A DNA stretch of 64,000 nt, taken from contig JAHQJS010000005.1 in the NCBI GenBank assembly GCA_019057385.1, positions 224,799-288,798 on the forward strand, given 5' to 3'. Made by a program: the position numbers and the translations under genes. Below, piece by piece: positions 23,776 to 57,262 of this stretch. Within the stretch, counting starts at the first letter, position 1. The number at the start of each line of letters is the position of its first letter. Below the pieces are notes generated by a model. The model was not told where the DNA came from. It searched no databases and worked only from the letters and a program-made list of their open reading frames with translations. This DNA comes from Candidatus Borrarchaeum weybense. GTDB taxonomy: Archaea > Asgardarchaeota > Sifarchaeia > Borrarchaeales > Borrarchaeaceae.

Positions 23776-23882
23776 TGGCGGGTCCGGCGAGATTTGAACT
23801 CGCGATCGCCCAGCAACATCGATATGATGGTTGCAATCAGGCTTAGGAGGCCTGTGCCCTATCCTGGCTAGGCCACGGACCC
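23776..23882 (-). tRNA. tRNA-Arg(CCU) with one intron at about 45/46 (23807-23835)
   Basis: GGGTCCG acceptor, A20, CAGGC-CTCCTAA-GCCTG anticodon arm, G73, encoded CCA; 29-nt hairpin insert in the variable region. Confidence 0.9.
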
Positions 23883-23969
23883 TTATTTTGAAGTTATGTT
23901 TTCAAGATTCTCCGCTAACAACTTAGAAAAATTATTGCATTTGTGGAGCACATAAAATCCTTTTCAAAA

Positions 23970-24107
23970 TGGCGGGTCCGATGGGATTCGAACCCATGAG
24001 TCGACGCACTCCTCCGAATTGAGGGAGAGCATTTCCGGCTTCGAAGGCTTACGCCCTAGACACAATGTGTCAAGGTCGGCGCCTCATCCAGGCTAGGCCA
24101 CGGACCC
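23970..24107 (-). tRNA. tRNA-Arg(UCG) with two introns (29/30: 24049-24076; variable region: about 24000-24031)
   Basis: Removing 28- and 32-nt hairpin inserts gives a 78-nt cloverleaf with CCGGC-CTTCGAA-GCCGG; exact register of the second intron is ambiguous. Confidence 0.88.
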
Positions 24108-24314
24108 ATTTTTAAGGTCTTGTTAAGACTAGTAACTTATAGAGGAATCGTTGTCAGAAGTATAGTATATCTTGAGTTTTTAACTTTATCGGCAGAAACG
24201 CCTCTTCCGTACGCGAGAACTACTTACAGTTCATTCCTTACAAAATAAGAAGAAAAAAAGGATGTAAAGGAACCACATTTGTTTTGTTGAGTCACTAGAC
24301 AACAGAAGACTGCA

Positions 24315-24896
24315 TCAGGCGAGGAGAATAATAATCGCGTATCCGATTGCAATGAAGCCAAGAGGTACTGAGATCAAGGGAAATGTCAGAACCTTTGCAA
24401 TAAACTCCAGCAACTCCTCAAGCCATTTGAACAGGAAGAACACAATCCCACCAAAGATTATAAAGACTATTGCAATGATCAGCCAGTTACTAGCTAAGGA
24501 TACGCCTAATGAGACCATTATAAAGACCGCGACACCAGCAGCGATAAGCCCACCGACTAAACCTAGCAGAGCAGCCCATGGGACAACAGTCCATGGTTTC
24601 ATAATGTTTGCAATACCGATTACTAATAATAAGGCAATTAATATAGTGTCTCCGAGCCATGATGGGGCTTGGCCTGCGGGAAACGCAGTATCAGGAGTTA
24701 CCCAAACTACAACGCCAGTCACAACACACAAGATACCAATAAAGAAGCCAAGGGCAGCAAAGATTTTGACAAAAACAGCAAAAACCTCTCCTACTTTACC
24801 CATACGTTCAGCGATTTTTTCACTTAACCACGCAATAGCAAGAAGTCCTGCAACTATGAGAATAGCCGGTGCAAATTGAGCGAGAACTGTTACCAT
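24315..24896 (-). CDS. hypothetical integral membrane protein
   Basis: 193 aa, about six hydrophobic segments; GGTGA SD. Confidence 0.75.
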   Translation of the reverse strand: MVTVLAQFAPAILIVAGLLAIAWLSEKIAERMGKVGEVFAVFVKIFAALGFFIGILCVVTGVVVWVTPDTAFPAGQAPSWLGDTILIALLLVIGIANIMKPWTVVPWAALLGLVGGLIAAGVAVFIMVSLGVSLASNWLIIAIVFIIFGGIVFFLFKWLEELLEFIAKVLTFPLISVPLGFIAIGYAIIILLA

Positions 24897-25194
24897 AATT
24901 CATCACCGATCGTTTTCATTCTTTTATTTTTTGATTCGAGAGACGAGAATTCTTCTTATAAGAAGAAACTGCACGGTGGTTAAAATATGTTTTGCCTTTA
25001 TCAGAAACTTCGAGTATTCAGGTCTTTAATTAGTTGTTTGAACATAGATTTTCGAATTTGGTGAAAAACAGTTTTAAATTCGCGCGCAAATAAATCACCA
25101 TATACTTTAACATGTTGAAAGCACTAAATTATACTTAACTTAAATTTCATAGTTAAGCGAGAGGAATCTGGCAATAGATAAGGTCAATGAATGA

Positions 25195-27204
25195 GTGTGT
25201 ATTTCCTTGAACGAAGAAGCCCATGAAGAAGCCATTTCTTTGAAAATGAGTGTTGAAAAAACCGCGCTTAGCCCCGGAGAACTATTTAACGTCTTCTTTA
25301 CTATAGAATCTCATATTTCCCACAGTTTTAAACGGTTTCAGCATCTGCCAAAGGTATTCAAACTTGCACAAGTTGAAGAATTTCCAAGAAAATTCAAAGA
25401 AGGGGATGAAACGCATCAGAAAGTCAGTTTCGTCGCACCGAGTGGTCAAGTTCCTAGTGATTTTGAACTCTTTTTTGAGTTTATATTTGAGAAAGAGGAT
25501 ACAAGTTTGCTTATTACTACTGTGCCTCTCCTGATAAGGATAATGAGGCCCGAAGAAATCCCCTCTGATCAATTAAGTATCATTGCAGACCATAAAATTG
25601 ATATAAATGGCAATTTGACCACGTCATTGCAGGAATTTCCAAAAATGAACGGAACACATACTGTTCTATCCGAAGAAACTGAATTAGTAGAAATAGAAAC
25701 CAGAATCGTGGCTGCTGAAGAAGTTGACGAACTATCTCCTCCTGAGATAGAGAGTTTTGATACGCTAATTGAAGAACAAGTGGGGACAAGCGAATTACTG
25801 TTGGAACCTGAAGAACAAGTGGAGACAAGTGAATTACTGTTGGAACCTGAAGATACACCAACAAACAATATTTTATCAGAAGATAAAACAGAAATGTTAA
25901 CAGACAAGATTTCGGAATATACTCGAAAAATTGTCTCCCTAGAAGATCAACTTAAGAAGCAAACAAGAGACCTAAAGCTCAAAGAAGAAGATCTAAAAAA
26001 TCGAGAAGAAGAAATAATGATCTTGAAAAATGAAAACACTCGTTTAGACGATGCTATCGGAAAATATCGTGCAAATATAAATGACCTTGAGAGAACTTTA
26101 GAGGACATTACCCCTCGTCTAAGTGAATTTGAAACCAAATTTTCAGAGCGTGGCAAAAAAATCAATCAACAAGAGGGAATTAACGCAAATTTGAGGACAG
26201 AACTTGATGAAAAGGATAAGGAATTAAAACAGCAAAAAGATGAAATTGAGAAACTATCAGAGCACAAATCAAAAACTGAAAAACAAATTGCTTTGTTAAA
26301 AACAAAAACTGAAGAATTAGAGTTACTTGCATCAGAACAAGCAGCAAAAGTAATAGCTCTCGAAGAGACTCGAAAAGAATTAAATGACCATCTCGATGAA
26401 AAAACGGAAGAAATCATGAAAATAAAGAACGAACGTGACCAACTTCAAGTAAAACAACGCGAACTAAAGCGTGTGATAACACAATTATCGCAGCAGATAG
26501 AAGATGAACTCAAACCGCATATTGAACAACTTCAAGAAGCACTTGTCGAGCGCGAATCGAAGATTAATCAACTCAAACGACGACTTAGTAGCGCCGATAA
26601 CCAGTTGAATGAAAAAGACACCGTAATTGAACAACTAAATAAGGAACTCGGAATTCTAAAAGAACAATTTATTATAGAGCCCGAAGATAAGATAATCGAA
26701 TACTATGGTCCTACTGAAGAGATGATTACTACCGAAGAGCCATACACACCTCCTAGAGAACCAGAAGTTGAAGAGCTAATTGATACGCCTGAATCTATAG
26801 CTCTTTCTGAGAACCTTCTTGCATCACCTGAAGAAGATGGGCTTATTGAAGAGAGTGCCGTCAGTGAAACAAAAGAAACTTCTAGAGAAAAAGAAATCGA
26901 AGAATTCATTGTAAAAGGGGGAGAATTCGGCACAGAAGAGATTGAACTGCCTATCATAGACGAAACCAAAGAATTTTATGAAGAAGAGATCGAAGAAAAA
27001 GAAATATTAATCCCGGATGCTCCGAAATGCAAGATTTGTGGGTCCACATCATGTCCTACCTGTGGATCCTCGTTATCATACTGCAAAGTTCGTTGCACTC
27101 ATTGTAGCTCCATTATGCATCGACACTGTGCAGAAGGGATGAGATCCTCCGAAAATGATGTTTTTATAAGCTGTCCAACTTGTAATGAGAAAGTTGTTTT
27201 GTAA
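25195..27204 (+). CDS. acidic coiled-coil protein with C-terminal PHD/RING-like finger
   Basis: Long heptad region; C-terminal CKIC...CPTC...CTHC...HRHC...CPTC; exact start uncertain. Confidence 0.75.
   Translation: MCISLNEEAHEEAISLKMSVEKTALSPGELFNVFFTIESHISHSFKRFQHLPKVFKLAQVEEFPRKFKEGDETHQKVSFVAPSGQVPSDFELFFEFIFEKEDTSLLITTVPLLIRIMRPEEIPSDQLSIIADHKIDINGNLTTSLQEFPKMNGTHTVLSEETELVEIETRIVAAEEVDELSPPEIESFDTLIEEQVGTSELLLEPEEQVETSELLLEPEDTPTNNILSEDKTEMLTDKISEYTRKIVSLEDQLKKQTRDLKLKEEDLKNREEEIMILKNENTRLDDAIGKYRANINDLERTLEDITPRLSEFETKFSERGKKINQQEGINANLRTELDEKDKELKQQKDEIEKLSEHKSKTEKQIALLKTKTEELELLASEQAAKVIALEETRKELNDHLDEKTEEIMKIKNERDQLQVKQRELKRVITQLSQQIEDELKPHIEQLQEALVERESKINQLKRRLSSADNQLNEKDTVIEQLNKELGILKEQFIIEPEDKIIEYYGPTEEMITTEEPYTPPREPEVEELIDTPESIALSENLLASPEEDGLIEESAVSETKETSREKEIEEFIVKGGEFGTEEIELPIIDETKEFYEEEIEEKEILIPDAPKCKICGSTSCPTCGSSLSYCKVRCTHCSSIMHRHCAEGMRSSENDVFISCPTCNEKVVL
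25771..25848 (+). repeat. 39-bp in-frame tandem repeat (two copies)
   Basis: Encodes EEQVGTSELLLEP / EEQVETSELLLEP. Confidence 0.9.
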
Positions 27205-27518
27205 ACATTAATAGAATATTTTCATTATTTAACAGAAGTCTAACCCCTCAAAAAGAGACATTTGCTTGAAAACAAGCTTATAGTGAACCTCAAATTCGTT
27301 TTAAGTTACTGAAATATTTGTATAAGGCGTTAATATTTTAAATGAATTAATGGATGATACTTTGTCCTTTTCATGTAAGAATAACAAAAGGACTCTAATC
27401 CCATTTCAAGAACCCAATCATTTTATTGATTATTGAACTCAAAAACTGGCAAGTAGGCTGCACTCTAAGAAAAAGAATTAGCAATTACTTGTTAAGGTCA
27501 TTAGGAGGAAAGAGTATA

Positions 27519-30506
27519 TTGAAAATGTCAAGAAAATTTACGCCAGTATCTATTGAAGAAACGATTTTGAAATTTTGGGAGGATAATAAGATCTATCAAA
27601 AAACGAAAGATTATCGAAAGGGCAAAGAAAAGTTTTACTTCTGCGATGGTCCCCCTTATACGACTGGGAGCATTCATTTAGGCACTGCATGGAATAAAAT
27701 CATCAAAGATTTCTTCCTCAGATACAGGCGCATGAGAGGTTATGACGTCTATGATCGCCCAGGGTATGATATGCACGGATTACCCATTGAAGTCGCTATT
27801 GAGAAGAAACTGGGCATCGAAACGAAAAAGCAAATCGTTTCATTTGGCGTGGAACGCTTTATTGAAGAATGTAGAGCATTTGCGATTGAAAACCTCAATA
27901 AGATGACAGAACAATTTAAAAGGTTAGCTGTGTGGATGGATTGGGAAGATCCGTACATGACAATCAAAGATTCTTATATCGAGGGTGCTTGGTGGGCACT
28001 TAAGAAAGCGTATGAAAAGGATCTTCTATACAAAGGCACGAGAGTATTGAATTCTTGCCCTAGATGTGAAACTGTTCTCGCTAAGCATGAGTATGAGTAT
28101 AAGACAGTTGGAGATCCTTCAATTTTTGTAAAATTTCAACTAAGAGACACGCCAAATGAATATTTCATAGTTTGGACAACGACACCTTGGACTCTCCCTA
28201 GCGACTTAGCAGTTATGGTACACCCAGAGTTCGAATACGTTCGTGCTCAGGTTGAAGATGAAATCTGGATCATTGGAAAGTTTGTCTCAGTAGGTATTAT
28301 TTCAGCAATGCTTGAAAAAAAATTCAAGGTAATCGAAGAAGTCACAGGTGAAATACTGCGGGAAAGAGGACTCCGTTATATTCATCCGCTCATTGAAGAA
28401 GTTCCTATTATGCAGGAATTTTATGAAAAATATCCGGAAGCACATTCTGTATTATTGAGCAGTGAGTTTGTAACGAAACTGCAAGGTACTGGTATCGTTC
28501 ATAGCTCTCCTGGGGCTGGACCTGAGGACTTTGAGGTAGGAACAAGATATGGACTTCCTCCTTTTTCGCCACTTGATGAAGCTGGACGTTTTACTGAAGA
28601 GGCTGGAAAATACGCTGGATTATTTGTTAAAGATGCAGATCCTATCATAATTGAGGATTTAAGGAGAAAAGGTCTGCTTCTTGCGACTCATCGAGTTGAA
28701 CACGAGTATGCTCATTGCTGGAGATGCAAGAGCCCTTTGATATTTCAAGCTACAAGCCAATGGATGTTGAATTTAACGAAAGAAAAAGAAAAGATTCTTG
28801 CAGAAAATGACAAAGTTAAATGGTCTCCAGATTGGGCAGGTAGTCAGAGTTTTAGGAGCTGGTTAGAAAACCTGCAAGATTGGTGCATTAGTCGACAAAG
28901 ATATTGGGGTATACCTCTACCGCTCTGGATTTGCGATGCATGTGAATCTATTGAGGTTATAGGATCAAGAAAAGAACTATTAGGTATGTATGGAAAACCT
29001 GTTGATGATTTTCACCGACCTTGGATTGATGAGGTAACATGGGTTTGTGCCTGTGGTGGTACCTTTCGAAGGGTACCCGATGTATTAGACGTTTGGCTGG
29101 ACAGTGGCGCAGCAACATGGGCTATCTTGCCCTATCCTGAAGATCCTAAAACCTACGATTACTGGTGGCCTGCCGACTTCATTTTAGAAGGTAAAGATCA
29201 AGTTAGAGGCTGGTTCAACTCACAAATCTGTCTAAGTGTTGTAGCAAACGATAGGAGACCTTACGAGGCAGTTTATATGCATGGTTTTGTTGCAGATACC
29301 GAGGGACGGAAAATGAGCAAATCTTTAGGAAATGCAATTGAACCCAGTGCCGTTATTGAGAAGTATGGCTCCGAAGCGTTTAGATTCTATTCTTTAGCTA
29401 CACCTCCAGGCGAAGATATGAAATTCGATTTTAAAACTCAACAGGATTACTTCAAAATTCTGAATATTCTTTGGAACACTTACATGTTCGCAATATCACG
29501 AGTCAAAGAGTCCAACTTTAATGTACAGGACCATTCTCTCGATACTGCTGAACTTCAGATAGAAGATAATTGGCTTATTTCGCGTTTCCACTCTGCACTT
29601 AACAAGATGACCCGCGCCTTCGAAGCAATGCGCCCGGGAGATACAATTCCCATTATGCAGGAATTAATTGTTGAAGACATAAGTAGATGGTATATTCGCC
29701 TAATCCGAGAACGCACATGGATTTCTGAGTCGGGATCAAGCAAAGCAACTGCACTTACTACCCTTGTAACTGTCCTCACAGAAACTGCCAAGATGTTTGC
29801 TCCTGTTCTCCCAATAATAGCAGAATCAGTCTATCAAAATTTCATTCGTGAACAATATCCTGATTTGCCTGAGTCTATCCATATGTGCGATTGGTCTGAA
29901 GTTAACGAATCATTCCGTGATGAAAAACTAGAAAATGCTATGAAAGACGCACGAAAAATTGTAGAACTTACTCTAGCGCTTCGAGATGAGCATAATATCA
30001 AATTAAGATGGCCTTGTAAGAGACTCGTTGTGATATCGAAAGAAGGTTTTGGTGATATATCAGAAGTAATTCCCGCAATCGTTCACGAGGCAAATGTAAA
30101 AGATGTGCTTGTAACTGAAACGTTACCTAGTTCAACAGAACATTTAGTTGGTATGGTAAGCGATTCATTTGACCTCTACCTCGATTTAGAAATCACTGAT
30201 GAAATTGCCTCAGAAAGACTTGTAAGAGAATTCATGCGCCAAGTACAATTTACTCGAAAGAAAAACAGACTTAATGTAAGTGATCGTGTTGACCTCATTG
30301 TAGTAACTCAAGATGACAAAATCAGACAGTATTTAACAGAGTGGCGAGAAGAAATCATCGCAAAAGTCGGAGCGCAAAACTATGAGGCACAAAAGAACGA
30401 TATAGAAGAAGATTTTAAAGATCACTACCCCATATTCAGTGAATTGCAGTATGAGAATGCCAAAGTCAAAATATATATGAAAAAAACTTCCCTTTCTTCT
30501 AAATGA
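27519..30506 (+). CDS. ileS: isoleucine--tRNA ligase (archaeal/eukaryotic type)
   Basis: DGPPY..IHLGT, WTTTPWTLP, WCISRQRYWG and KMSKS; start TTG 27519 or ATG 27525 after GGAGG. Confidence 0.97.
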   Translation: MKMSRKFTPVSIEETILKFWEDNKIYQKTKDYRKGKEKFYFCDGPPYTTGSIHLGTAWNKIIKDFFLRYRRMRGYDVYDRPGYDMHGLPIEVAIEKKLGIETKKQIVSFGVERFIEECRAFAIENLNKMTEQFKRLAVWMDWEDPYMTIKDSYIEGAWWALKKAYEKDLLYKGTRVLNSCPRCETVLAKHEYEYKTVGDPSIFVKFQLRDTPNEYFIVWTTTPWTLPSDLAVMVHPEFEYVRAQVEDEIWIIGKFVSVGIISAMLEKKFKVIEEVTGEILRERGLRYIHPLIEEVPIMQEFYEKYPEAHSVLLSSEFVTKLQGTGIVHSSPGAGPEDFEVGTRYGLPPFSPLDEAGRFTEEAGKYAGLFVKDADPIIIEDLRRKGLLLATHRVEHEYAHCWRCKSPLIFQATSQWMLNLTKEKEKILAENDKVKWSPDWAGSQSFRSWLENLQDWCISRQRYWGIPLPLWICDACESIEVIGSRKELLGMYGKPVDDFHRPWIDEVTWVCACGGTFRRVPDVLDVWLDSGAATWAILPYPEDPKTYDYWWPADFILEGKDQVRGWFNSQICLSVVANDRRPYEAVYMHGFVADTEGRKMSKSLGNAIEPSAVIEKYGSEAFRFYSLATPPGEDMKFDFKTQQDYFKILNILWNTYMFAISRVKESNFNVQDHSLDTAELQIEDNWLISRFHSALNKMTRAFEAMRPGDTIPIMQELIVEDISRWYIRLIRERTWISESGSSKATALTTLVTVLTETAKMFAPVLPIIAESVYQNFIREQYPDLPESIHMCDWSEVNESFRDEKLENAMKDARKIVELTLALRDEHNIKLRWPCKRLVVISKEGFGDISEVIPAIVHEANVKDVLVTETLPSSTEHLVGMVSDSFDLYLDLEITDEIASERLVREFMRQVQFTRKKNRLNVSDRVDLIVVTQDDKIRQYLTEWREEIIAKVGAQNYEAQKNDIEEDFKDHYPIFSELQYENAKVKIYMKKTSLSSK

Positions 30507-30590
30507 CAAAGGTGTGGAAGAACTTCAAATAATGGAAATGGCGAGTGATCGAAAGATATTAAATAAAACACCTAATATTTCGTTACATGA

Positions 30591-30788
30591 GGGTCCGTGG
30601 CCTAGCCAGGTTAGCAGCGCTTCAATGTGCTGACCGAGGGGCGCCGGCCTTATATGACCTCGTCCCATACAAAGCAGGCCTAAGATAGCCGGAGACTGCC
30701 TGTTTCTTGCTATTACCGGCAGCCGAAGATCGCGGGTTCGAATGTCTTGAGCAAATCGCTCATTTCGAAAAGCCCGCCGGACCCACCA
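30591..30788 (+). tRNA. tRNA-Ile(UAU) with four introns (30614-30638, 30655-30686, 30695-30728, 30743-30771)
   Basis: Removing four BHB-bounded inserts gives a 78-nt cloverleaf GGGUCCGUGGCCUAGCCAGGUUAGGGCGCCGGCCU-UAU-AAGCCGGAGAUCGCGGGUUCGAAGCCCGCCGGACCCACCA with A73. Confidence 0.85.
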
Positions 30789-30868
30789 CTTTCTTCTTTT
30801 TAATGAATATTTTTATTCTCTATACTATCATTTTTCAAGAAACATTGAAAAGGTCATATTAAGAGGTA

Positions 30869-32758
30869 ATGACCATGTCCCCCTACAGGCAATTCGCAGA
30901 GGAATGCATTATACTTACACAGAAAACCCTTCAAGCTGTCTTTCCAGAACTATCAGTAACACTCAATCATGAAATTCCGGCTAAATTAGAGTTTGGAGAG
31001 TTGGCAGTTCCTGTTTTTCATATCGCAAAGAAAATAAACAAAAAACCCAAAGATCTTGCAGAAATTCTCATTGAAAATATCAACCCTTCAAATTCACGCT
31101 TCATAAAAGAAGTAGTAATAGGTGGAGCAGGCTATCTAAATTTCTTTGCAAATTATGATTCCTTTGCAAATCTCGTTATAAACTCAATAAGAACCCTGGA
31201 TACAAGTTATGGAAAAAGTGAAGCGAAGAAAAAGGAAAAAATTATAGTAGAATACTTGAGTCCAAATCCAAATTCTCCTTTGCATATCGGTCATGCACGA
31301 AATGCAATTCTAGGCAGTTCACTAGTCAAAGTTTTGCAAACACAATCTCATGATGTTTGTTCTCACATATATATCGATGATGTTGGTCGACAGGTTGCGA
31401 TATGTGTACAAGGTCTACGGATGGTAGATAGAGACACTCAGCCTTCAGACATGAAGTCAGACCAATTTGTAGGAACAATTTACACAATAACAAATGCACT
31501 TACTGAAATTCAGAAGGCAAAAAAGGAACAAAATGACTTAGCTGAATGGGAATCAATCGCAGAAGAATTAAAAAAAGCACAGCCTAGTATTTTCGACCAG
31601 ATTAGTAATAACTCAGAAAATATCGACTTAGATGCGGAAATATCGACCCTCATATCTCTTTATGAAAATCAAGATGAACAAACTGTTCAACTTTTCAGAA
31701 GTCTTGTTGATTTAGTTCTTGGAGGATTTAAGGAGACCTTCAAAACAATTGATATAGCTTTCGAAAGCTATGATTGGGAAAGTTCGTTCATCTGGGATGG
31801 AAGTGTTACAAAGATTTTAAACGAACTAAAAATGACACCTTTTGTTACAGAACTCGATGGTGCATTAGTCTTCGATTGTGAGAAAGCTGCAACTGAATTT
31901 AATATTAAAGAGAGTTTGGGGGTTAAAGAAACTCATGAAATTCCTCCTATGACTTTAATGAGATCTGATGGCACGACTCTTTATACAACACGGGATATAG
32001 CATACAGTAAATGGAAACTTGATCAATCAGATCGCGTAATAAATGTTATAGGGAAGGAACAGACACTTCCACAACTTCAGATAAGAATAGCTTTGTATGT
32101 ATTAGGTGAAGATGGTAGCAGACAGATTCATTATGCCTATGAACTTGTTAAACTTCCAGAATTCAAAATGTCAAGTCGAAGGGGACGTTATATTGGTTTT
32201 GATGATCTAATAGATGAGGCGACAACGAGAGCTCTAGAGGAAGTTAACACCCGTTCACCGCATTTATCCGAAGATGAGAAAAGAAGTATTGCTGAAGTAG
32301 TTGGGATTGGTGCTGTAAAGTATTCTATCTTAAACGCCGTGCCGACCAAAATTGTGACATTCACATGGAATAAAGTACTCGATTTTGAGCAGAATAGCGG
32401 GCCTTTCATTCAATATGCACATGCAAGAGCATGTAATATTCTTAAAAAAGCAAAAAAAACTCCTAAAACAGCCAACTACAATTTGGTAGATGAAGAATTA
32501 GAAAAACTTCTTGTCCAAAAACTTTCACTATTTCCAGAAATTATATCGAAAGTGGCTGAGGAATTACGTCCAGACATTGTATGTGAGTACGCAAACAACC
32601 TAGCATCGATATTTAACTCATTTTATGCTTCTATACCGGTATTAGCAGCTGAAACCGATGAATTAAGGAATTTACGTTTATTAATTGTTAATAGTGTGCG
32701 AATCGTGTTAAGAAATGCCTTGAAATTGATGGGAATTGTTGCCCCATCGAGAATGTGA
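30869..32758 (+). CDS. argS: arginine--tRNA ligase
   Basis: SPNPNSPLHIGHARN, RSDGTTLYTTRDIAY, KMSSRRG, QYAHAR, C-terminal RM. Confidence 0.97.
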   Translation: MTMSPYRQFAEECIILTQKTLQAVFPELSVTLNHEIPAKLEFGELAVPVFHIAKKINKKPKDLAEILIENINPSNSRFIKEVVIGGAGYLNFFANYDSFANLVINSIRTLDTSYGKSEAKKKEKIIVEYLSPNPNSPLHIGHARNAILGSSLVKVLQTQSHDVCSHIYIDDVGRQVAICVQGLRMVDRDTQPSDMKSDQFVGTIYTITNALTEIQKAKKEQNDLAEWESIAEELKKAQPSIFDQISNNSENIDLDAEISTLISLYENQDEQTVQLFRSLVDLVLGGFKETFKTIDIAFESYDWESSFIWDGSVTKILNELKMTPFVTELDGALVFDCEKAATEFNIKESLGVKETHEIPPMTLMRSDGTTLYTTRDIAYSKWKLDQSDRVINVIGKEQTLPQLQIRIALYVLGEDGSRQIHYAYELVKLPEFKMSSRRGRYIGFDDLIDEATTRALEEVNTRSPHLSEDEKRSIAEVVGIGAVKYSILNAVPTKIVTFTWNKVLDFEQNSGPFIQYAHARACNILKKAKKTPKTANYNLVDEELEKLLVQKLSLFPEIISKVAEELRPDIVCEYANNLASIFNSFYASIPVLAAETDELRNLRLLIVNSVRIVLRNALKLMGIVAPSRM

Positions 32759-32903: not shown

Positions 32904-33431
32904 ATGAACCAAGAAAGAATTCACATTTTACGAAAGGGTATAAAGAAGACAGGTCCAGTTGTTTATTGGATGTGCCGAGACCAACGTGTAAATGATAACT
33001 GGGCGCTATTATTCTCTCAAGAGTTAGCATTAAAACACCCCTTGGCAGTTGTTTTTTGCTTAGTGCCTCAATTTCTAGGAACGACTATTAGGCAGGATGA
33101 TTTCATGCTTAAAGGTCTGCAAGAAGTAGAGAAAAACTTGAAAGAAAAAAATATCCCCTTTTACATGCTTACAGGGTCTCCAGAAGAAGAAATCCCCAAT
33201 TTTGTGTCAGAATATGAAATCGGCACGCTGATCACAGATTTTAGTCCCCTGCGCATTAAAAAAACGTGGAACAGAAGTGTTAAAGGTCATATTGATATCC
33301 CTTTTTTCGAAGTTTACGTTCATAATATTGTACCTTGCTGGATTGCATCGCCAAAACAGGAATATGCGGCTTACACTTTCCGACCAAAAATTCATCGTGC
33401 ACTAAAATTAATATTAACAATAGATAAATAG
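32904..33431 (+). pseudogene. phr: truncated class II CPD photolyase (N-terminal domain only)
   Basis: VVYWM.RDQRV.DNWAL, TDFSPLR and [22 protein letters not shown], then a stop at 175 aa; no FAD-binding domain follows. Confidence 0.85.
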
Positions 33432-33468
33432 CAGCGCTTAGTTATTTAAGCAAGAGGGAGACCCTTGT

Positions 33469-33523
33469 AAAAGTGAAGCAATTCATCGCAAACTATCCCT
33501 CATGTGTTGGGGGTCTTCTTGCG
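33469..33523 (-). mobile_element. IS200/IS605 left-end relic
   Basis: Minus strand cgcaagaagaccccc...gatgaattgcttcacttt matches the tnpB element left end cgcaagaagacccct...gatgaattgcggtttcacttt. Confidence 0.7.
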
Positions 33524-33728
33524 AATGGATTATAAACATCCTCACTCTATTACTCATACGCGTTAACAATTTTCTTATTAATAAACATCAATATTTAATA
33601 CCACCTTACTATTATTCGTGCTTATATTGAAAAACCCCATAAGAGTTTGAGAGTTGATCCAAAACGTTTTTCATTTGATTAAGGGTGCGGTATCACCTTA
33701 GCAACCATACACTGATGTTGGTGACCAA

Positions 33729-37528: not shown

Positions 37529-37667
37529 AGCCCGGTGGTGTAGCGATGTGGATGATTTTTATCCCATTGCAAATTGGCCAAGCATAGTGGGCTTTGGACT
37601 CGCTGAGAATTATCTAACCTTATTACGATAATTCGCGGAAACCCCAGTTCGAATCTGGGCCGGGCTA
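37529..37667 (+). tRNA. tRNA-Gln(UUG) with two introns (16/17: 37545-37573; 45/46: 37606-37640)
   Basis: AGCCCGG/CCGGGCT acceptor, GTGGG-CTTTGGA-CTCGC arm; both inserts are hairpins bounded by a 4-bp helix and 3-nt bulges. Confidence 0.88.
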
Positions 37668-39247: not shown

Positions 39248-39251
39248 AGAA

Positions 39252-47871: not shown

Positions 47872-47932
47872 CTCTATCAAAATCTAAGTACTACGGGTAA
47901 GTGTGAATATCTTTGATGCGGATTTGAGAAAT

Positions 47933-48422
47933 TAATATTTTTTTATTGTGAAAGATATTTCATGTGGTCTAACAAAAGGAAGAGCAAAATAACCGATTTT
48001 AATTGGTTCTAGACTCACTGTTACGCAATATTTTTTTACTTTAGGATTTAATAACTTACACGCCTTATTAAACCAGGTCTTATTAAAGTATGAAAATGGT
48101 AAGGCGCTTTAGCCGTCCCCGACAATTTATGAGGGCATTTTACCTCAATTTCATCTTTACTAACTCTAACTAACTCTTTTATAAACTTAAATGGAGTTTT
48201 AGTATGTTCTATCACATGATAGGAGATAACTTTATCAAAAGTGTCTGCTCTGAAAGGTAAATAGTTACCATCGGCAACAATATCCGCCTTGGTTTTTGTT
48301 ACATCTTTATTCCGTAAGTAGACACCAGCAGGCAAATGGCACGTTTTAATAAACAAATCTACATTAATGTCACCTTTCGGCTCGTCGCCACAGCCAACAT
48401 CAAGTATCATATAGATCAACAA
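47933..48422 (-). pseudogene. class I SAM-dependent methyltransferase, probably frameshifted
   Basis: ILDVGCG, D...LPF...FD and HVIEH motifs; plausible continuation (YFNKTWF..., ...RPHEISFTIKKY) lies in other frames. Confidence 0.55.
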
Positions 48423-48468
48423 TTATTTGTTTTGTGTGAATATTAGTGAGCATGATATATACTCATTT

Positions 48469-49632: not shown

Positions 49633-49844
49633 CTAATAATGCCTCCTTAATTAGGAATATCCCATTAATGCTTATTCAGAATTCCTACTTAAGATAATTA
49701 AAGTATTTCTAAGAGAATTTGAGGTTAAAAGAGAAACTTTAAATAGTCAACTACATTAAGTATTCTCCCTTACTTTCTGGGATAAATATCCCATCAGAAA
49801 TGTTTTATGAACATTTATGGCTAATCAAATAAAAAAGGAACTAG

Positions 49845-50312
49845 GTGTCGTTATTGTCATCGTCTTTCAGACATATTATTCGTATAATAGGTACAGATAT
49901 CGATGGAAATAAACGGTTAGACATGGGCTTAACTGATATTCCAGGTGTTGATATTCGGTTATCCCATGCAATATTACATGTAGCTGATATGGACCAAACT
50001 TCAAGAGTTGGTTTTCTTAGCGATCGTGATGTGAAAAAACTTGAAGATATCATTACAGATCCCTCAAATAATGGTATTCCAAAATGGTTGTTAAATCGTC
50101 AAAAGGATCCACACACTGGCGAGGATATACATTTATTAGGCGCTCGACTAAGACTGATGACAAAAACTGATATTGATTTACTGATGAAACTCAAAACATA
50201 TAAAGGTATACGCCATTCGCAAGGACTAAAAGTGAGAGGACAAAGAACAAGGACTACTGGACGGAAAGGCAGAGTTGTTGGAGTGCGCTTGAAGAAAAGA
50301 AGCGGCAGATAA
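49845..50312 (+). CDS. rps13: 30S ribosomal protein S13
   Basis: FRHIIRI.GTD.DG, IP.WLLNRQKD, GLKVRGQRTRTTGR. Confidence 0.97.
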   Translation: MSLLSSSFRHIIRIIGTDIDGNKRLDMGLTDIPGVDIRLSHAILHVADMDQTSRVGFLSDRDVKKLEDIITDPSNNGIPKWLLNRQKDPHTGEDIHLLGARLRLMTKTDIDLLMKLKTYKGIRHSQGLKVRGQRTRTTGRKGRVVGVRLKKRSGR

Positions 50313-50324
50313 AGGTGATGCGTT

Positions 50325-50864
50325 ATGGGTGATCCAAAAAAACCTAAGAAAAAGTATAAGAAACCCTTTCATCCGTGGGGAAAAAATCGAATGGCTATAG
50401 AGCTCGAATTAATCGGTAAGTATGGTCTTCGTAATAAGAAGGAATACTTACGGCATGAGGCGTATCTGAGAAAGATTAGAGAACAAGCTAGGCAAATTTT
50501 AGCTATTCTAGAAACTGATAAAAGAGAGAAAGTAGAAAAGGAAATATTATCAAGATTAGAACGCCTTGGATTGATTCAAACAGAGGCAGTTATTGATGAT
50601 GTCCTTAGTTTAACAACTGAAGATCTTTTAAAACGTCGACTTCAAACTATAGTTTTTAGACAAGGCTTTGCAAAATCTATTCATCATGCGAGACAACTTC
50701 TTCTTCATGGTCACATAGCACTTCGAGGTCAAAAAATAACTTCTCCAAGTCGTCTATTGCTTAAGGAAGAAGCAAAAGAGTTAACGTATGCATCTTCGAG
50801 TCCATATATGGAAGATAGTCACCCAGAACGTCCATCTACACCAATTCCTGAATCAACTGAATAA
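50325..50864 (+). CDS. rps4: 30S ribosomal protein S4
   Basis: [29 protein letters not shown]...HGHI. Confidence 0.97.
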
Positions 50865-50890
50865 AAATAGTTTTTCTTGAGGTTAATTAT

Positions 50891-51289
50891 ATGAGTCACA
50901 GAAAAGAACAGAAATGGGGCGTTGCCCATATTTATTCTTCTTATAATGATACAATTGTTCATATAACGGACCTTACTGGTGCTGAAACTATTGCGCGATA
51001 TAGCGGAGGTATGATCGTTAAGGCAGATCGAGAAGAAAGCAGTCCTTACGCTGCCATGCAAGCCGCTTTTAGGGCTGCAAATGAAGCAAGAGATAAGGGT
51101 ATTTCAGCTCTTCATATAACTGTAAGAGCACCGGGTGGTCATGGCGCAAAAACACCAGGCCCAGGCGCACAAGCAGCAATCCGTGCTCTAGCCCGTGCAG
51201 GTATGCGGATTGGTAGAATTGAAGAAGTCACACCAGTTCCTCATGATGGAACTAGACGCCCAGGCGGTCGTCGTGGAAGACGCGTTTAA
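50891..51289 (+). CDS. rps11: 30S ribosomal protein S11
   Basis: [35 protein letters not shown]. Confidence 0.98.
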
Positions 51290-51421
51290 GAATTTTTTGT
51301 TTTCTAATTACTATTATACTGTAAACACTCTCGAAAATGGAAATACAATTTCCATTCTTGTGTTCTACAAAATGACAATAGTTAATGCAACGATTTTTTA
51401 ATTCTTTAAAGAGAATTAGAA

Positions 51422-51548
51422 TGGCGCCGGGGGAGGGATTTGAACCCTCGAGCTCCAATGGAGCACAGGCTCTCAGATCTGGTTTCCAGGCATGAGCTGC
51501 AATGAATGACGCTTGCATCTGCTCCCTACCAGGCTAAGATACCCCGGC
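51422..51548 (-). tRNA. tRNA-Ser (anticodon most likely GGA) with two introns (29/30: 51492-51518; anticodon loop 12 nt: about 51472-51483)
   Basis: GCCGGGG acceptor, long variable arm, G73, CCA; first insert has a clean GAGC/GCTC central helix; the register of the 12-nt insert is ambiguous (UGA is the alternative). Confidence 0.8.
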
Positions 51549-51656
51549 ATATTCAGCATTGGATACCCAAAATCGATTGGTTTCTAGAAGGCACCTTTGT
51601 TTAAATATTTATAGGCTAGGTGCTAAAGCCCCCTGTACGAATTAAAAATTATATAA

Positions 51657-52256
51657 CTATATTAATGACTTATATACATGATATCCTGCCTTTTTTCCAA
51701 TTTCTAAGACCGTATTAAACACGTTATTCAATTTTTCATATACTCTATTGTGTCCCCTTCTTATGACTAATTGAAGAGAGCCTTGTGATGTAAGATGAAG
51801 AGGAGCCTCTTCAATAATTTGGAAGACAGTTTTCATGCCGCTTGAAACTGGAGGATTTGTCACAATAATATCGAATGTTTCCTTATCTCCTTGAATAGGC
51901 TCATAAAGGTCGCCCCATCTTGCCTCTGCATTTTTAATGTAATTTTTTTTAAGATTACTCTTCGTAAGATTGATGGCTCGTCTATTAATGTCTGTCAGAA
52001 CAACTTTACTATTAGGAGATATTATTGATGCTGCTACGATACCAATTACTCCTATTCCACAACCAAGATCCAAAACCCTGTCCGAGTTGGTCAAATCCAT
52101 TTTCTCGATAAGCAATTGCGTGCCTTTATCGATTTTGGATTGTGAAAAAACGTCTGGAGCAGAAACGAACTCAAACAATTTACCTCGTAGATACACAGAA
52201 ATTGTTTTCGTTTTTAACGAGGATGTGGGCATTTTAGACGAATATGGCTTTGGCAT
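51657..52256 (-). CDS. RsmC-like class I SAM-dependent methyltransferase
   Basis: VFS...ID.GT.LL, LDLGCG.G.IG, D.N.RA, TNPP. Confidence 0.88.
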   Translation of the reverse strand: MPKPYSSKMPTSSLKTKTISVYLRGKLFEFVSAPDVFSQSKIDKGTQLLIEKMDLTNSDRVLDLGCGIGVIGIVAASIISPNSKVVLTDINRRAINLTKSNLKKNYIKNAEARWGDLYEPIQGDKETFDIIVTNPPVSSGMKTVFQIIEEAPLHLTSQGSLQLVIRRGHNRVYEKLNNVFNTVLEIGKKAGYHVYKSLI

Positions 52257-52280
52257 TTTTCTCAGGGACCTTATCTTTTA

Positions 52281-53317
52281 CTATTGTTTAAAGGATTTCC
52301 ACTCTGGATACGTTGAGCGTGGCATTATGACTTTCTTTGTATTAGCAACTATGCCATGATCTATTTCAAGAATCTCTTTACTTAACATAGTAGCCTCAGC
52401 AATACCAATTGCTTCGCCTTTCTGAGTAAATATGGCTACAGTACCACCTGGTTTGATATTATCGCTTAACTTTAATACACCAGGCGCCGTTAATTTTGCC
52501 CCATGGCATATTGCATCGACTGCAGAGTCTCGAATCACCAGCTTTGGAAGATGAACTAAGCCTTCTTCCACAGGTTGTATTACCTTACGCAGATACTGTT
52601 CCTTTCCATCCTCTTTCCAATAGTGATATGCATCGTTTACTTCAAGAAGTGTAACAAGAGTGTCATCCTCCTTGAATGGACCTGCACGCGTTCTCCTTAG
52701 TTCTAACATATGAGCCCCCGTGCCCAACACTTCGCCAATATCATGTACCAGCTTCCTCATATAGAATCCCGCTTCGCAACCGACTCGAATGAGCACGTCT
52801 TTTCCTAAAATTTCTAATACATTTGTATAATATACTCTACGGATTCTTAAGCGTCTTTTTACAGAAGATCTTAGTGGAGGACGCTGATAAAGTGGGCCTG
52901 TAAACTCTTGACATATTGTCTCTATTTTTTCGTGATCTACTTCTTTGTGAAGACGCATTATGCAGATGTATTCTTTCCCAGCAGGAAGCCAACTTTGTAC
53001 AACCTTTGTTGCACGTTCTAAAGCAACTGGAAGAATTCCTGTTACGCCGGGATTACTCTATTCTGAAGATTAACTCACCTTCAGAACTCTAGAGTCCCTC
53101 CATGTCCTGCTTTCTTTAATTCCAGAATTCTTTTGATCCATGCTACAACTTCATGACTTGTTGGTCCAGCAGGTTTATCTAAATTGATTATTCCAAAGGC
53201 TAAATGCTTTTCAATAGGACGTTCAGCAGGCTTATAACCCCATTCAGGATTTGTCGCCTCCTGTGCTTTAGTGATTAATTCTCCCCGCACGTCACTAGGT
53301 AGGCGGCCTCTTTCCAT
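52281..53317 (-). CDS. cbf5: H/ACA RNA-guided pseudouridine synthase Cbf5, two exons (53317-53089, 53053-52281), 333 aa spliced
   Basis: LDKP.GPTSHEV, GHGGTL-D-PGVTG restored by splicing, YQRPP.RSSVKR, PUA domain. Confidence 0.95.
53054..53088 (-). other. 35-nt BHB intron in cbf5 mRNA
   Basis: GGGA-CUCU-AG^A-GUUCUGAAG...CUUCAGAAU-AGAG-UA^A-UCCC; splits the catalytic Asp codon. Confidence 0.93.
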
Positions 53318-53388
53318 TTTTTCACCTTCTCATTTTTGGAAATCCCAAAAAGTTATTTATATTACAATAAAATAAGTAAAATTAAAAA

Positions 53389-53673
53389 TTAGGGCAGAAC
53401 GATTTTAACCCGTTCTTTTAATGCATCAGTCATCCCCGCAGCCTCAATTGCTTTAAGAACTGCTTCATCATCTGATCCTCGTCCGATTTCAATTTTTTCC
53501 GTTGTTGGTTCGATGTGTCGTATTGATGCACGTCGTCTTTTTACACCGTTTAATTCTTTAGGACCAGTTATTTCCACAGTTTTTGGGTCAACAATATCTA
53601 GGATCACACATTTTCTTCCGACTTCTCTCCCAGCCGTTTTTACGCAAATTCGTCCAATTTCTATCGCAGGCAT
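53389..53673 (-). CDS. rpl14e: 50S ribosomal protein L14e
   Basis: IEIGRICVKTAGRE.G.KCVI, GP...GVKRRR...HIEPT. Confidence 0.96.
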   Translation of the reverse strand: MPAIEIGRICVKTAGREVGRKCVILDIVDPKTVEITGPKELNGVKRRRASIRHIEPTTEKIEIGRGSDDEAVLKAIEAAGMTDALKERVKIVLP

Positions 53674-53674
53674 T

Positions 53675-54241
53675 TCATTTTTCACCTCCTATGAATTCTT
53701 GTATTGCTGTTTTTAAGATATTTGTTATTGAATCAATTGACCATTTGTCAGTATTAAGGATGATATCAAAGATGCTCAGGTCTTGAACGTCAATATTATA
53801 AATTTTTTTGTACCTCTTTCTTTCGCTTGTTTCACGCTTTGTCGTTTCGCCTAAAGCGTATTCATAAGGATCTCCGTCTCTTTGAGCAATTCTTTCGACA
53901 CGTACTTCTAATGGTGCGGTCACAAAGATGTTAAGATCAACAAAATCTTTACACATCCAGGCAGTCAAATGTCCATCTAACACTACATTTCCTTTTTTTG
54001 CTGCATCTATACTTCTTTCATCAATTTCTTTATCAATATGAATATTCTTCTCTGCAAATGTGCTAAAAGTGCTTAAATCCATTTCTCTTTGTTGAGCCAT
54101 TTGCCTAAAGATTTTTCCCGCAGAGATATGTTCTAATTCAAAGGCTTCCGCAATGTGTTTAGCAAAAGTGGATTTTCCAGCACCAGCTGTTCCAGAAATC
54201 GCTATTGTAAGACCCTTATTTTGGGGCAAACTATTCACCAA
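53675..54241 (-). CDS. cmk: cytidylate kinase
   Basis: ISG.AGAGKST, SAG.IFRQMA, ID..ID, RIAQRD; conserved operon position. Confidence 0.93.
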   Translation of the reverse strand: MVNSLPQNKGLTIAISGTAGAGKSTFAKHIAEAFELEHISAGKIFRQMAQQREMDLSTFSTFAEKNIHIDKEIDERSIDAAKKGNVVLDGHLTAWMCKDFVDLNIFVTAPLEVRVERIAQRDGDPYEYALGETTKRETSERKRYKKIYNIDVQDLSIFDIILNTDKWSIDSITNILKTAIQEFIGGEK

Positions 54242-54275
54242 TATAAGAAAAAGAAATCAGTTTAAAAAAATGTTG

Positions 54276-54542
54276 CTAAATTCTTGCCGCCTGTTTTGTG
54301 AGTTCTTGCAGGCATTGAGGACAAAGATGCCCGCCATAAGGTCTTTCTGGACGGCGCTGCGTCTTTGGCAACTTTCTTATTTCTGCGGCGGAAAGGCGAG
54401 GAACACCTGATAACAATTTTCCGCAGTTTGCACACTTACTTTTTCTCACTTTTTTCTTCTTATAATGTGTAGTTGTTCGACCACCTGGCAATTTCATTTT
54501 TCGTTTTTTAATTAACCGAGTACGATAACGTGGTGCTGGCAT
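54276..54542 (-). CDS. rpl34e: 50S ribosomal protein L34e
   Basis: PGG, CA.CG..L.GVPR, RPERPYGG.LC..C. Confidence 0.96.
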   Translation of the reverse strand: MPAPRYRTRLIKKRKMKLPGGRTTTHYKKKKVRKSKCANCGKLLSGVPRLSAAEIRKLPKTQRRPERPYGGHLCPQCLQELTKQAARI

Positions 54543-54600
54543 CTTGTTTTTCACCTACTTTTAACTGTTTTTAGTTACTTTTAACTCATCTGTATTTACT

Positions 54601-55194
54601 TCAGCTCGTCTGGAAAGCAGAAAGACCTCCCATACCGATATTTATACCAAAGATCCTCTGGACTATTGCACCAAATGCAAAGCTCGTCATGGCGTACCAC
54701 CAAACGAAGAGTAGCGCGTATAGGTTCTCTGCTCCAACATTCGCTCCAAAGAACGCAATTGGGAAGCTGAACGGAAGTATTACCACGTATCTAGCCCCTT
54801 CACCCGCAATAAGTGGTAAGTAACCATTGAAGAATCCATTTATTATCCAGAAAAGCGCAAAGAACCCTGGCATGTAAATGAACATTGGTTTAAACCTTTC
54901 CATCATTACTCTGCTTTGAATCTTCTGTATATAATTTTCTTTACGTTTCACCTTTCGATAAAGTCGCTTGTTAGCGGTTTTTTGAGCCTCAGCCTTTGCC
55001 TTATTCCAAGTTGCGATTTCCTTCTGGTAGCGATTAAGCTTGTCCATGTCCATTACGAAGCGACTAACAAGGCTAATCACTACGGAGAGTAGAATGGACA
55101 ACGATAGAATAAATAGAGTGGACCCTGGACGCTGGCCTATACCAACGTTATATAACCACTGATAAAATGGAATTAAGATGTTCCACCATGCCAT
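54601..55194 (-). CDS. EMC3/TMCO1 (DUF106, Oxa1 superfamily) membrane insertase
   Basis: TM-coiled coil-TM layout, FKPM, LPF and WWY motifs; between adk and rpl34e. Confidence 0.85.
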   Translation of the reverse strand: MAWWNILIPFYQWLYNVGIGQRPGSTLFILSLSILLSVVISLVSRFVMDMDKLNRYQKEIATWNKAKAEAQKTANKRLYRKVKRKENYIQKIQSRVMMERFKPMFIYMPGFFALFWIINGFFNGYLPLIAGEGARYVVILPFSFPIAFFGANVGAENLYALLFVWWYAMTSFAFGAIVQRIFGINIGMGGLSAFQTS

Positions 55195-55197
55195 TTT

Positions 55198-55794
55198 TTA
55201 ATTCACACCCTTTAATACGACTGCTAATTCTTCTGCAGTCTCATCAACCATACCTTCCTTATTTTTTACGATTTTGACAGTGGCTCCTGTCAAAACTGAA
55301 ATTGCAGTCGCAGCTGCCCGACATAGGTTTTGATGAGTGTTGATTTCTATCGTAGAATCTTGATCACGAGTTCTAGTTTCATCCTTTGAACGTCTACTAA
55401 AGATAAATTCTGGTTCTGCTTCAACAAGTACAATTACATCTGGTTTAAGTGTAGTGATAACCCATTCGGGTAATCCTGCTAGATAACCTTCTGGAGTTGC
55501 GATCAACATATGAGTATCGACTATTAATAGCTTTCCCTGTGCTGCTTTTTTTGCTATGATCTCTGCTGCATTCTTTTGAATTTCCCGTTGTTTTTCAGGT
55601 GGGAGTAGACGCATTTGATCTCTGTTTTCCACAAATCCTGAATTTACTGCCGCGTCAAACATCACAGATCCGTAATTTACGATCTCTACGGTATACTCTT
55701 GTCTAGCAATATCCGCCGCTTTATTCAAGACTGTTGTTTTCCCAACTCCGGGAATTCCAGTAACGATGACAATGCGTTTACTAGCCACACTCAT
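55198..55794 (-). CDS. adkA: archaeal adenylate kinase
   Basis: VTGIPGVGKTT, NYG..M, RD.MR.L, DTH, GYL.GLP. Confidence 0.95.
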   Translation of the reverse strand: MSVASKRIVIVTGIPGVGKTTVLNKAADIARQEYTVEIVNYGSVMFDAAVNSGFVENRDQMRLLPPEKQREIQKNAAEIIAKKAAQGKLLIVDTHMLIATPEGYLAGLPEWVITTLKPDVIVLVEAEPEFIFSRRSKDETRTRDQDSTIEINTHQNLCRAAATAISVLTGATVKIVKNKEGMVDETAEELAVVLKGVN

Positions 55795-55813
55795 GAATTA
55801 TCGCTCCGTTAAA

Positions 55814-57262
55814 TCATCCAAATCCTAAGAAATCTCTGAGGGATGGATGTATATCTGCTAATCGCTCTTTAGCTATGATCTCATAATATTGTGATATTAT
55901 CATAGTAGCTAACAGAATCCCCATGCCTGTACCAAGTGCTCCAAGATAATCTGCAAAAGCGGCTATAAGCGCAATCGCCACACCACCCCATATAGAGGCG
56001 GGACCAATGTAACGCTTCAGTAATTTTTCAAGTATCTTTGGACTACTTCTAAATCCAGGAACCATCATTCCTGCATCTAAAAGTTGCCTTGCCACATCTT
56101 TTGGAGCCATTCCTCCAACTTCAATCCATGTTACTGAGAAAATGGTGCACGCAACAATTAATACTAATAGATAAACTACAGCCCTCAAGGGATCCGCTGT
56201 CACCACTTCAATGCCTCGTGGAGGCGTCAAATAGTAGACAAGACCTCCTACAGGTTTCAATCCTGCATCTGTCGACTCGAAAGTACCAATTAAATTGTAC
56301 CAGAAGTTAGAGTTGCTCTTATTGTAACGTGACCATAATAACTGCCCAATAAGGTAAACATTAGCGAAGAAAGCCGCTGCAAGAATCACAGGAATATTCG
56401 AAGCGTAAAAGAATTTGATAGGATATCTTCCTTTAAAACCACGATATTTGGCATACGTAAGTGGTACTTCTATGCGAATAGCCTGCATGTAAATAACGAT
56501 AACAAACACAACTGCTGTGGCAATGAATCCTGTCATGTCTGGAAGGCTGCCTGGACGATCAAATGCGGTCATGGCATCTCCTTCAGCAATATATTGTCCA
56601 AGAGCTATGAGCGCACCATGATATTTACCGTCATCTGAAATTACAAGTCCTAAAGAGTTCCATGCTACCTGTTCGGCTACACCAGCAGCAATAAAGAGAG
56701 AAATTCCTGAGCCAAGACCCCATCCTTTCTGCAATAATTCGTCCATTAGCATGAGGACTATACCGGCAGCTATAAGCTGAATGAATATAAGAATTGTGAT
56801 ATCGATGGATAAGGTTCCAAACGCACCTCCGATAAGATATGCTAACGCCTGAAACACTGTCATTATTACACTTAACACTTTTTGAGCAGCAGTAAATAGA
56901 GAACGGTCTTCTGGATCCGAGAAGTCTACGTCAATGATCTGACTGCCAGATAATAACTGCATAACCAGCCCTGCAGTTACTATTGGGCCGATCCCCAACT
57001 CCATGAGTGTTCCTCTAGAACTCGCAAGAATGGTTCGCATCCAGAATTCCGCGAGCTATCTAAGTGATAGTTCTCTAAACGGGTCTGGACCGATATTCTT
57101 TGGAAGTCCATATAGAGGAATTTGTGCCATAACTAAATATAAGAGAAGACAAAGTACCGTATAAACTGCCTTTTCTTTGAAAGACACATCTCGATCTGGT
57201 TTCCCGACCTCTGGTATAACTCTCGATAATGGAGAGAAAATGCGTAAAAATGTACCTGTCAA
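55814..57262 (-). CDS. secY: preprotein translocase subunit SecY/Sec61alpha, two exons (57262-57077, 57046-55814), 472 aa spliced
   Basis: IPEV.KP.R.VSFKEK, IPLYG; splicing gives [53 protein letters not shown]. Confidence 0.93.
57047..57076 (-). other. 30-nt relaxed-BHB intron in secY mRNA containing an in-frame UAG
   Basis: CCAGA-C-CCGU-UU^A-GAG-AA-CUAUC-acuua-GAUAG-CUC-GCGG-AA^U-UCUGG. Confidence 0.82.

Follow-up and report, generated by a model that had tools for sequence, protein, structure and literature searches.

The one documented case found of a bulge–helix–bulge (BHB) intron within a coding region is that of crenarchaeal cbf5, where it splits an Asp codon after the first letter and is known to be spliced (PMC2738675); a literature library searched for BHB introns in Asgard mRNAs, or in Asgard cbf5, yielded none. 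Heavy interruption of tRNA genes in Asgard archaea is already published, with introns in 92–95 % of these genes (Valentin-Alvarado 2024, PMC11291895), 1.87 inserts per gene in the Sifarchaeaceae and two EndA paralogues in 44 of 60 genomes (2026 preprint 10.64898/2026.10.13.758758), as well as an (αβ)2 EndA bearing an L1 loop, a feature linked to the cleavage of relaxed motifs (Kaneta et al. 2018, PMC5829648). The stretch considered here is a 64,000-nt portion (hereafter the window) of contig JAHQJS010000005.1 of Candidatus Borrarchaeum weybense, in which a first-pass annotation had described introns in five tRNA genes, secY and cbf5, and had suspected an Asgard host; the lineage is indeed Asgardarchaeota, Sifarchaeia, to judge also by the names of proteins that cluster with its EndA at ≥ 90 % identity. 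The inserts within these genes, together with those located elsewhere in the genome (G000) in TBP, RFC-S (the RFC small subunit), an RNase PH-domain gene and uL6, measure 12–41 nt, and sequence comparison makes it highly probable that they are archaeal BHB introns. Several essential mRNAs of this organism must, very probably, be spliced.

The five tRNA genes of the window mostly escape recognition as they stand. ARAGORN called zero tRNAs in the unspliced 64 kb, and Rfam, at its gathering threshold, returned a single tRNA match, unspliced and with a 30-nt insert. Candidate genes (n=5, 104–198 nt) were located via GC-rich islands and pairs of T-arm and acceptor stem, and 11 introns were placed by hand using the canonical BHB layout before verification with ARAGORN. 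In this layout the 5′ half comprises h, H (4 nt of exon), a bulge of 2 exon nt and 1 intron nt, and h′, and the 3′ half h′, H (4 nt of intron), a bulge of 2 intron nt and 1 exon nt, and h. Upon in silico removal of the 11 introns, ARAGORN calls five full-length cloverleaves out of five, with the identities Arg-CCU, Arg-UCG, Ile-UAU, Gln-UUG and Ser-GGA, and the interruption of all five genes by 11 introns of 12–35 nt, as first annotated, is borne out in every position and size. Among the 11 tRNA introns, 7 have a fully paired helix H and 4 a single mismatch in it. When the two mRNA introns of the window are included, H is 4/4 (G-U allowed) in nine cases and 3/4 in four (t2 46/47, t3 21/22, t3 45/46 and t5 37/38; Table 1), in keeping with the single mismatches noted initially, and all 13 fit a 4-bp helix with two opposite-strand 3-nt bulges, cut after the second bulge nucleotide. 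Placement is least certain for the boundary of the variable-loop intron (~46/47) of tRNA-Arg(UCG). Beyond the window, a partial census, covering genes with an intact T-arm on the seven contigs other than C1, places 14 of 18 tRNA genes above 92 nt and 2 of 18 at or below 78 nt. The anticodon of t3 is fixed by canonical BHB pairing at 37/38 (CUUA/UAAG). The acceptor stem and D-arm of this gene are near-identical to those of both tRNA-Arg genes at 23779-24107, and the gene has the look of a tRNA-Arg scaffold recruited as a tRNA-Ile(UAU).

The same geometry is found in cbf5, which encodes a pseudouridine synthase and lies, with secY and tRNA-Ser, on the minus strand, the three forming the co-oriented run originally described. 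The cbf5 frame breaks after ...GHGGTL; according to Pfam, exon 1 holds DKCLD, and TruB_N picks up at profile position 17 with the first residue of exon 2. The motif, GGGA-CUCU-AG^A ... AGAG-UA^A-UCCC (^ marks the cut or junction throughout), comes with a 9–11-bp intron stem. With exon 1 ending in ...CUA G and exon 2 starting with AU CCC, a cut after the second bulge nucleotide would yield Asp-Pro, and the predicted junction, GTLD^P, is that of intron-less orthologues. Twelve of 28 Asgard genomes inspected, from families f1, f8, f13, f17 and f18, carry an intron of 26–41 nt at this very site. All four pairs of H are intact in each of the 12 carriers, in six distinct combinations (CUCU/AGAG, CACU/AGUG, CACU/GGUG, CCUU/AAGG, CUUU/GAAG and CUCU/GGGG), the exon side varying by synonymous codon changes and the intron side compensating. 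A related strain in another metagenome additionally lacks 4 nt of the intron loop. Such changes are to be expected of a spliced RNA element, and not of coding sequence or a pseudogene.

In secY (Sec61alpha), the Pfam match to Plug_translocon (positions 1-23) stops exactly where exon 1 stops, and the SecY domain lies in exon 2. The motif reads UCCAGA-(C)-CCGU-UU^A, a hairpin, and GCGG-AA^U-UCUGGA, and the spliced product would possess a Sec61alpha-like plug motif with the junction DPF^FW. Congeners G001 and G002 keep the 30-nt intron, with substitutions confined to the 5-nt hairpin loop, and it is missing at the exact predicted junction (CCGUUU^UUCUGG) in congeners G003 and G004, which show 98 % protein identity, and in G005 of the same class. 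A second insert, unique to G002, is 28 nt long and frame-shifting (CGGG-AA^A ... CCUG-AA^A), and its excision gives back the G000 sequence. Several other Asgard families display a SecY match that falls into two or three segments of a single long open frame of 504–585 aa (G010, G011, G015, G020, G021, G025, G030, G031, G035, G039 and G040; also L120–L122), reflecting either in-frame insertions of ~30–50 residues or stop-free introns.

The first-pass annotation had anticipated further spliced protein genes, and these were sought without recourse to the motif. The 2,036 open reading frames (ORFs) of a complete, 1.42-Mb Odin-like relative (G006) were compared with this genome by tblastn, and collinear alignments broken by 8–160 extra bases were sought among the 900 ORFs matched at ≥ 70 bits. 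This search re-found cbf5 and secY, and added TBP with three inserts, the RNase PH-domain gene (Rrp41/42-like, as in the exosome), RFC-S and uL6. All three TBP inserts are missing at the exact predicted junctions in congeners G001–G004. In the two TBP repeats, the first and third occupy homologous positions (VCT^G); they are mutually similar, have common 5′ and 3′ ends (AUUUAG...UAAAGCAGAA) and, being missing in all congeners, seem to have been acquired recently as a pair. Every congener has the inserts of the RNase PH-domain gene, RFC-S and uL6, at lengths that differ by numbers not divisible by three, and the RFC-S insert shows stem-compensating changes among the congeners. The genome holds no second copy of secY, no second or intron-free copy of cbf5, no second TBP locus and no intron-free duplicate of any of the five tRNAs.

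The total comes to at least six protein genes with nine introns, which is ~1 % of the conserved genes testable (~6 of roughly 700–900), those affected so far belonging to information processing and secretion. The proposed spill of introns from tRNA into mRNA is thus real, although sparse and not pervasive. Other candidates, with seeming stops or inserts in Mrp/NuoL-like, PALP, FtsZ, M42 peptidase and ABC genes, were rejected, as BHB removal never improved the alignment and most lay at gene ends; rRNA-derived pseudo-ORFs from the tblastn census were also set aside.

Table 1. Interrupted genes, their inserts and genes of the associated systems. Positions lacking a contig name refer to the window; tRNA intron sites are given as tRNA positions.
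Feature	Position	Strand	Length (nt)	Details
tRNA-Arg(CCU), t1	23779-23882	−		Rfam 55.6 bits with 30-nt insert; spliced, a 75-nt cloverleaf
t1 intron	23807-23835	−	29	45/46
tRNA-Arg(UCG), t2	23973-24107	−		Spliced, a 75-nt cloverleaf
t2 intron	24049-24076	−	28	29/30; H = GCGC/GCGU, 4/4
t2 intron	24000-24031	−	32	~46/47; H 3/4
tRNA with anticodon UAU, t3	30591-30785	+		Four introns; spliced, a cloverleaf
t3 intron	30614-30638	+	25	21/22; one H mismatch
t3 intron	30655-30686	+	32	37/38; strict hBHBh′, h = anticodon stem
t3 intron	30695-30728	+	34	45/46; one H mismatch
t3 intron	30743-30771	+	29	59/60; strict hBHBh′, h = T stem
tRNA-Gln(UUG), t4	37529-37667	+		Spliced, a 75-nt cloverleaf
t4 intron	37545-37573	+	29	16/17; H 4/4
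t4 intron	37606-37640	+	35	45/46; H 4/4
tRNA-Ser(GGA), t5	51425-51548	−		Spliced, an 85-nt class II cloverleaf
t5 intron	51492-51518	−	27	29/30
t5 intron	51472-51483	−	12	37/38; one H mismatch
cbf5	52281-53317	−		Exon 1 53317-53089, exon 2 53053-52281
cbf5 intron	53054-53088	−	35	Strict hBHBh′; between letters 1 and 2 of the catalytic Asp codon
secY/Sec61alpha	55814-57262	−		Exon 1 57262-57077, exon 2 57046-55814
secY intron	57047-57076	−	30	In frame, contains TAG; relaxed BHB
TBP insert 1	C6:542850-542879		30	Junction VCT^GGKS
TBP insert 2	C6:543062-543098		37	Junction LY^EPEQ
TBP insert 3	C6:543190-543220		31	Junction VCT^GAKS
RNase PH-domain gene insert	C3:140668-140698		31	CAGU-AG^A ... 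GCUG-AA^A
RFC-S insert	C3:113733-113762		30	Two TAA within the P-loop; relaxed motif
uL6 insert	C8:67296-67333		38	Weak H
PylS C-terminal domain	C7:142596-143312	−		281 bits, cut-off 178
tRNA-Pyl(CUA)	C7:143743-143811	−		ARAGORN prediction; adjoins PylS
RtcB and archease	C5:144870-147087			Adjacent, divergent

The machinery such introns would need is encoded in the genome. Two EndA paralogues are present, each with N- and C-terminal endonuclease domains, alpha at C4:663.3-664.0 kb and beta at C5:195.8-196.5 kb. EndA alpha gives a gap-free alignment with the alpha subunit of Aeropyrum pernix (3P1Z_B, E = 6e-42), retains the Tyr/His/Lys triad and has the loop GYYGKPVGIRKPKHF, compared with GYYGQPLDVEKPRGADF in A. 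pernix, which holds the equivalent of lysine K44 of the Crenarchaea-specific (L1) loop. In EndA beta an Ala replaces the catalytic His, as for the structural beta subunit. By these features the enzyme is predicted to be of the broad-specificity (αβ)2 type and should be capable of acting on relaxed, non-canonical motifs, which supports the permissive EndA proposed at the outset. RtcB, for which a check had been recommended, is likewise present, as is archease. From the geometry, the restored products, the pattern of presence and absence, the covariation and these enzyme genes, we infer cleavage and ligation along the following lines. Exon and intron bases of the primary transcript would pair to form a 4-bp helix between two 3-nt bulges, each of which the heterotetrameric (αβ)2 EndA would cut after the second nucleotide; RtcB, helped by archease, would then join the exons, the intron probably leaving as a small circle. 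The system would serve essentially every chromosomal tRNA of this Sifarchaeia genome along with a few housekeeping mRNAs (cbf5, secY, TBP, RFC-S, RNase PH-domain protein and uL6), whose proteins would only be obtainable from spliced RNA, and its introns would be gained and lost inside the genus.

With regard to other explanations, the 30-nt in-frame inserts of secY, TBP and RFC-S might each be translated as 10 additional residues, with the secY TAG read as pyrrolysine. The secY insert preserves the frame, TAG is its sole stop, and the genome, which encodes PylS and tRNA-Pyl(CUA), appears to have a pyrrolysine system, such that TAG need not always stop. The secY TAG is, as a result, no proof of interruption by itself. 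The case for a secY intron rests instead on its geometry, its precise absence in relatives, the loop-only, non-conservative changes and the frame-shifting sister intron of G002. Translation is nevertheless very unlikely, as the insert would break a conserved Sec61 plug motif, and is precisely missing in close relatives, and its loop changes would be non-conservative in protein (Leu to Phe or Pro) whilst the RNA stems are kept. The RFC-S insert, moreover, has TAA twice within the P-loop, and lengths vary by non-multiples of three. The frame-shifting sisters, namely the second secY intron of G002, the 37- and 31-nt inserts of TBP, the 35-nt insert of cbf5 and those of 31–33 nt in the RNase PH-domain gene, are untranslatable.

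It is similarly improbable that something other than EndA and RtcB, be it a self-splicing element, programmed frameshifting or ribosomal bypassing, takes the mRNA inserts out or lets them be skipped. A relaxed motif is seen in several of the mRNA inserts, and their cleavage is deduced, which leaves some room for such a mechanism, but in size (28–41 nt), bulge composition and position of the 4-bp helix the inserts agree with the tRNA introns of this genome; the EndA cut rule yields the exact junction of intron-less relatives; and the cbf5 intron lies at the very site of one spliced in Crenarchaeota (PMC2738675). Group I, group II and spliceosomal introns were considered and rejected, the inserts of 12–41 nt being much too short for either of the first two, whose ribozyme core spans hundreds of nucleotides (the hallmarks of the third are GU-AG boundaries and a branch site), and Rfam reports no intron family in the window. 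That the tRNA introns alone are real and the protein-gene interruptions are pseudogenes or assembly artefacts is scarcely credible and largely refuted by the comparative data, for although the genome was assembled from a metagenome and its contamination is estimated at 7 %, the same inserts are found again in separately assembled congeners and in further metagenomes, the exons on either side are open and conserved, changes fall in hairpin loops or are compensatory, and secY, cbf5 and TBP are single-copy essential genes.

A number of observations do weigh against the interpretation of these inserts as BHB introns. The secY motif is classed as relaxed, since it has one extra C between h and H, opposite the 3′ bulge, and its only in-frame stop is a TAG in a genome equipped for pyrrolysine; the RFC-S and uL6 motifs are weak, with H at 3/4 or consisting mostly of G-U pairs. 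In the sole metatranscriptome-labelled run, no contig spans any of the junctions. A strict, structure-only scan of the genome for hBHBh′ yielded 59,769 raw matches against 58,910 for a mirror-chirality control, no excess, and 516 against 513 after an ORF-joining test. Such a scan is powerless because its output is swamped by chance motifs across gene boundaries and genuine introns frequently have a relaxed motif, and the lack of excess over the mirror control means that the motif alone carries little weight without comparative data. In-frame, stop-free inserts relative to the Odin-like genome similarly show no BHB enrichment (11 versus 22 for the mirror, score ≥ 16).

If the inserts are BHB introns, their distribution within the genus points to turnover. 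T-loop (59/60) introns are found in tRNA-Arg(CCU) of G001 and G004, and in tRNA-Arg(UCG) of G001, G002 and G004, with G000 having neither. A near-identical 29-nt T-loop intron resides in tRNA-Arg(CCU) of G004 (L167, near window position 23793) and in tRNA-Arg(UCG) of G002 (L183, near 23990), which suggests copying or gene conversion between adjacent paralogues. A motif-free indel census, comparing 36 kb of the window with congeners, also shows both secY polymorphisms; the sole other sizeable in-gene indel, of 39 nt at window positions 25784-25822, is a tandem repeat within an ORF and no intron. The secY intron itself resembles the tRNA-Gln 45/46 intron, with 50 of 5,000 shuffles reaching the observed local score (12 introns compared), a kinship that is suggestive, not conclusive. 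Its presence in G000–G002 and absence from G003 and G004 is at odds with sequence identity, implying more than one event, and precise losses are as likely as gains. Thus, of the active intron gain originally claimed, variable presence amongst congeners is upheld, whilst gain and loss are indistinguishable for most polymorphisms.

The likeness of the secY and tRNA-Gln introns, the paired TBP introns and the occurrence of one T-loop intron in different tRNA-Arg genes together lead to a tentative proposal, to which we give well under even odds: that endonuclease-type splicing is an evolving expression layer for Asgard core genes, its introns passing from tRNA to mRNA or the reverse, and from one exon context to a similar one. 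Were this true, the splicing of secY, TBP and RFC-S could tie their expression to tRNA maturation capacity.

Several further features of the genome and window were observed. Contig C1 (179 kb; e.g. C1:19435-19896 and C1:13917-15008) has 12 compact tRNA genes, 11 of them called intron-free, including a tight six-tRNA array (Glu, Ala, Gly, Met, Tyr, Pro), as well as a second RtcB, and by far the fewest in-alignment stops with Odin-like ORFs of any contig (1/694). It looks foreign, be it virus, plasmid or contaminant, and would be of interest if it were an element importing intron-free tRNAs into a host whose own all need splicing. Within the window, positions 60693-62079 form a repeated element of ~1.39 kb with an ORF at 60810-62018 (402 aa), present in many copies in all congeners; its ~90-nt ends are frequent as solo copies, in the manner of miniature inverted-repeat transposable elements, and it disrupts synteny with G004 beside the ribosomal protein operon. 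A second, short repeat at 33401-33628 has copies scattered through the congener genomes, and a GC-rich (~60 %) non-coding island with dense nested stems, at 6072-6519, has no Rfam match even at a permissive threshold.

The mRNA introns beyond crenarchaeal cbf5 would be a new addition to known BHB pre-mRNA introns, and what is notable is the crenarchaeal cbf5 site in five Asgard families, the three introns in the only TBP gene and the turnover within the genus. Such introns would offer a testable system for the entry and exit of short introns in protein genes without a spliceosome, and for the question of whether the TACK and Asgard lineages inherited the cbf5 intron from a common ancestor. There is a consequence for annotation also, in that standard gene and tRNA callers truncate or miss BHB-interrupted genes. 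Any bearing on pre-spliceosomal splicing near the eukaryotic root, as raised in the first-pass annotation, is speculation.

A comparison can be made with HAC1/XBP1 mRNA splicing, in which the endonuclease is Ire1 and the exons are joined by RtcB in metazoa or by Trl1 in yeast. In both settings a protein endonuclease cuts mRNA stem–loops, or is predicted to, a tRNA ligase joins the exons and the reading frame is altered. The nuclease and motif differ, however, and HAC1/XBP1 splicing is regulatory and stress-induced, whereas that in Asgard archaea is presumably constitutive, and the introns are not homologous. The closest prokaryotic relatives of eukaryotes would apply the mechanism documented for crenarchaeal cbf5 to several essential mRNAs, encoding the Sec61alpha homologue, a ribosomal protein, the sole TBP, RFC-S and an exosome-type RNase PH-domain subunit.

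Compared with the published Asgard tRNA introns, the tRNA component described here is not essentially different. Both feature several non-canonical introns per gene, at the D-arm, 29/30, 37/38, 45/46 and 59/60, an (αβ)2 EndA with the L1 loop, and repeated gains and losses, the window having 2.2 inserts per gene against 1.87 for Sifarchaeaceae; the mRNA introns are unreported in those papers. With the crenarchaeal cbf5 pre-mRNA intron (Aeropyrum, Sulfolobales, Desulfurococcales; Watanabe 2002, Yokobori 2009, PMC2738675) the present example shares a BHB within a protein-coding transcript, an identical site, similar size and a patchy distribution with gains and losses, and the common site could be owed either to ancestry or to an exon context that is favourable. 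It differs in its hosts, which are the Sifarchaeia and four further Asgard families, and in that cbf5 is here one of at least six interrupted protein genes, some of which have two or three introns.

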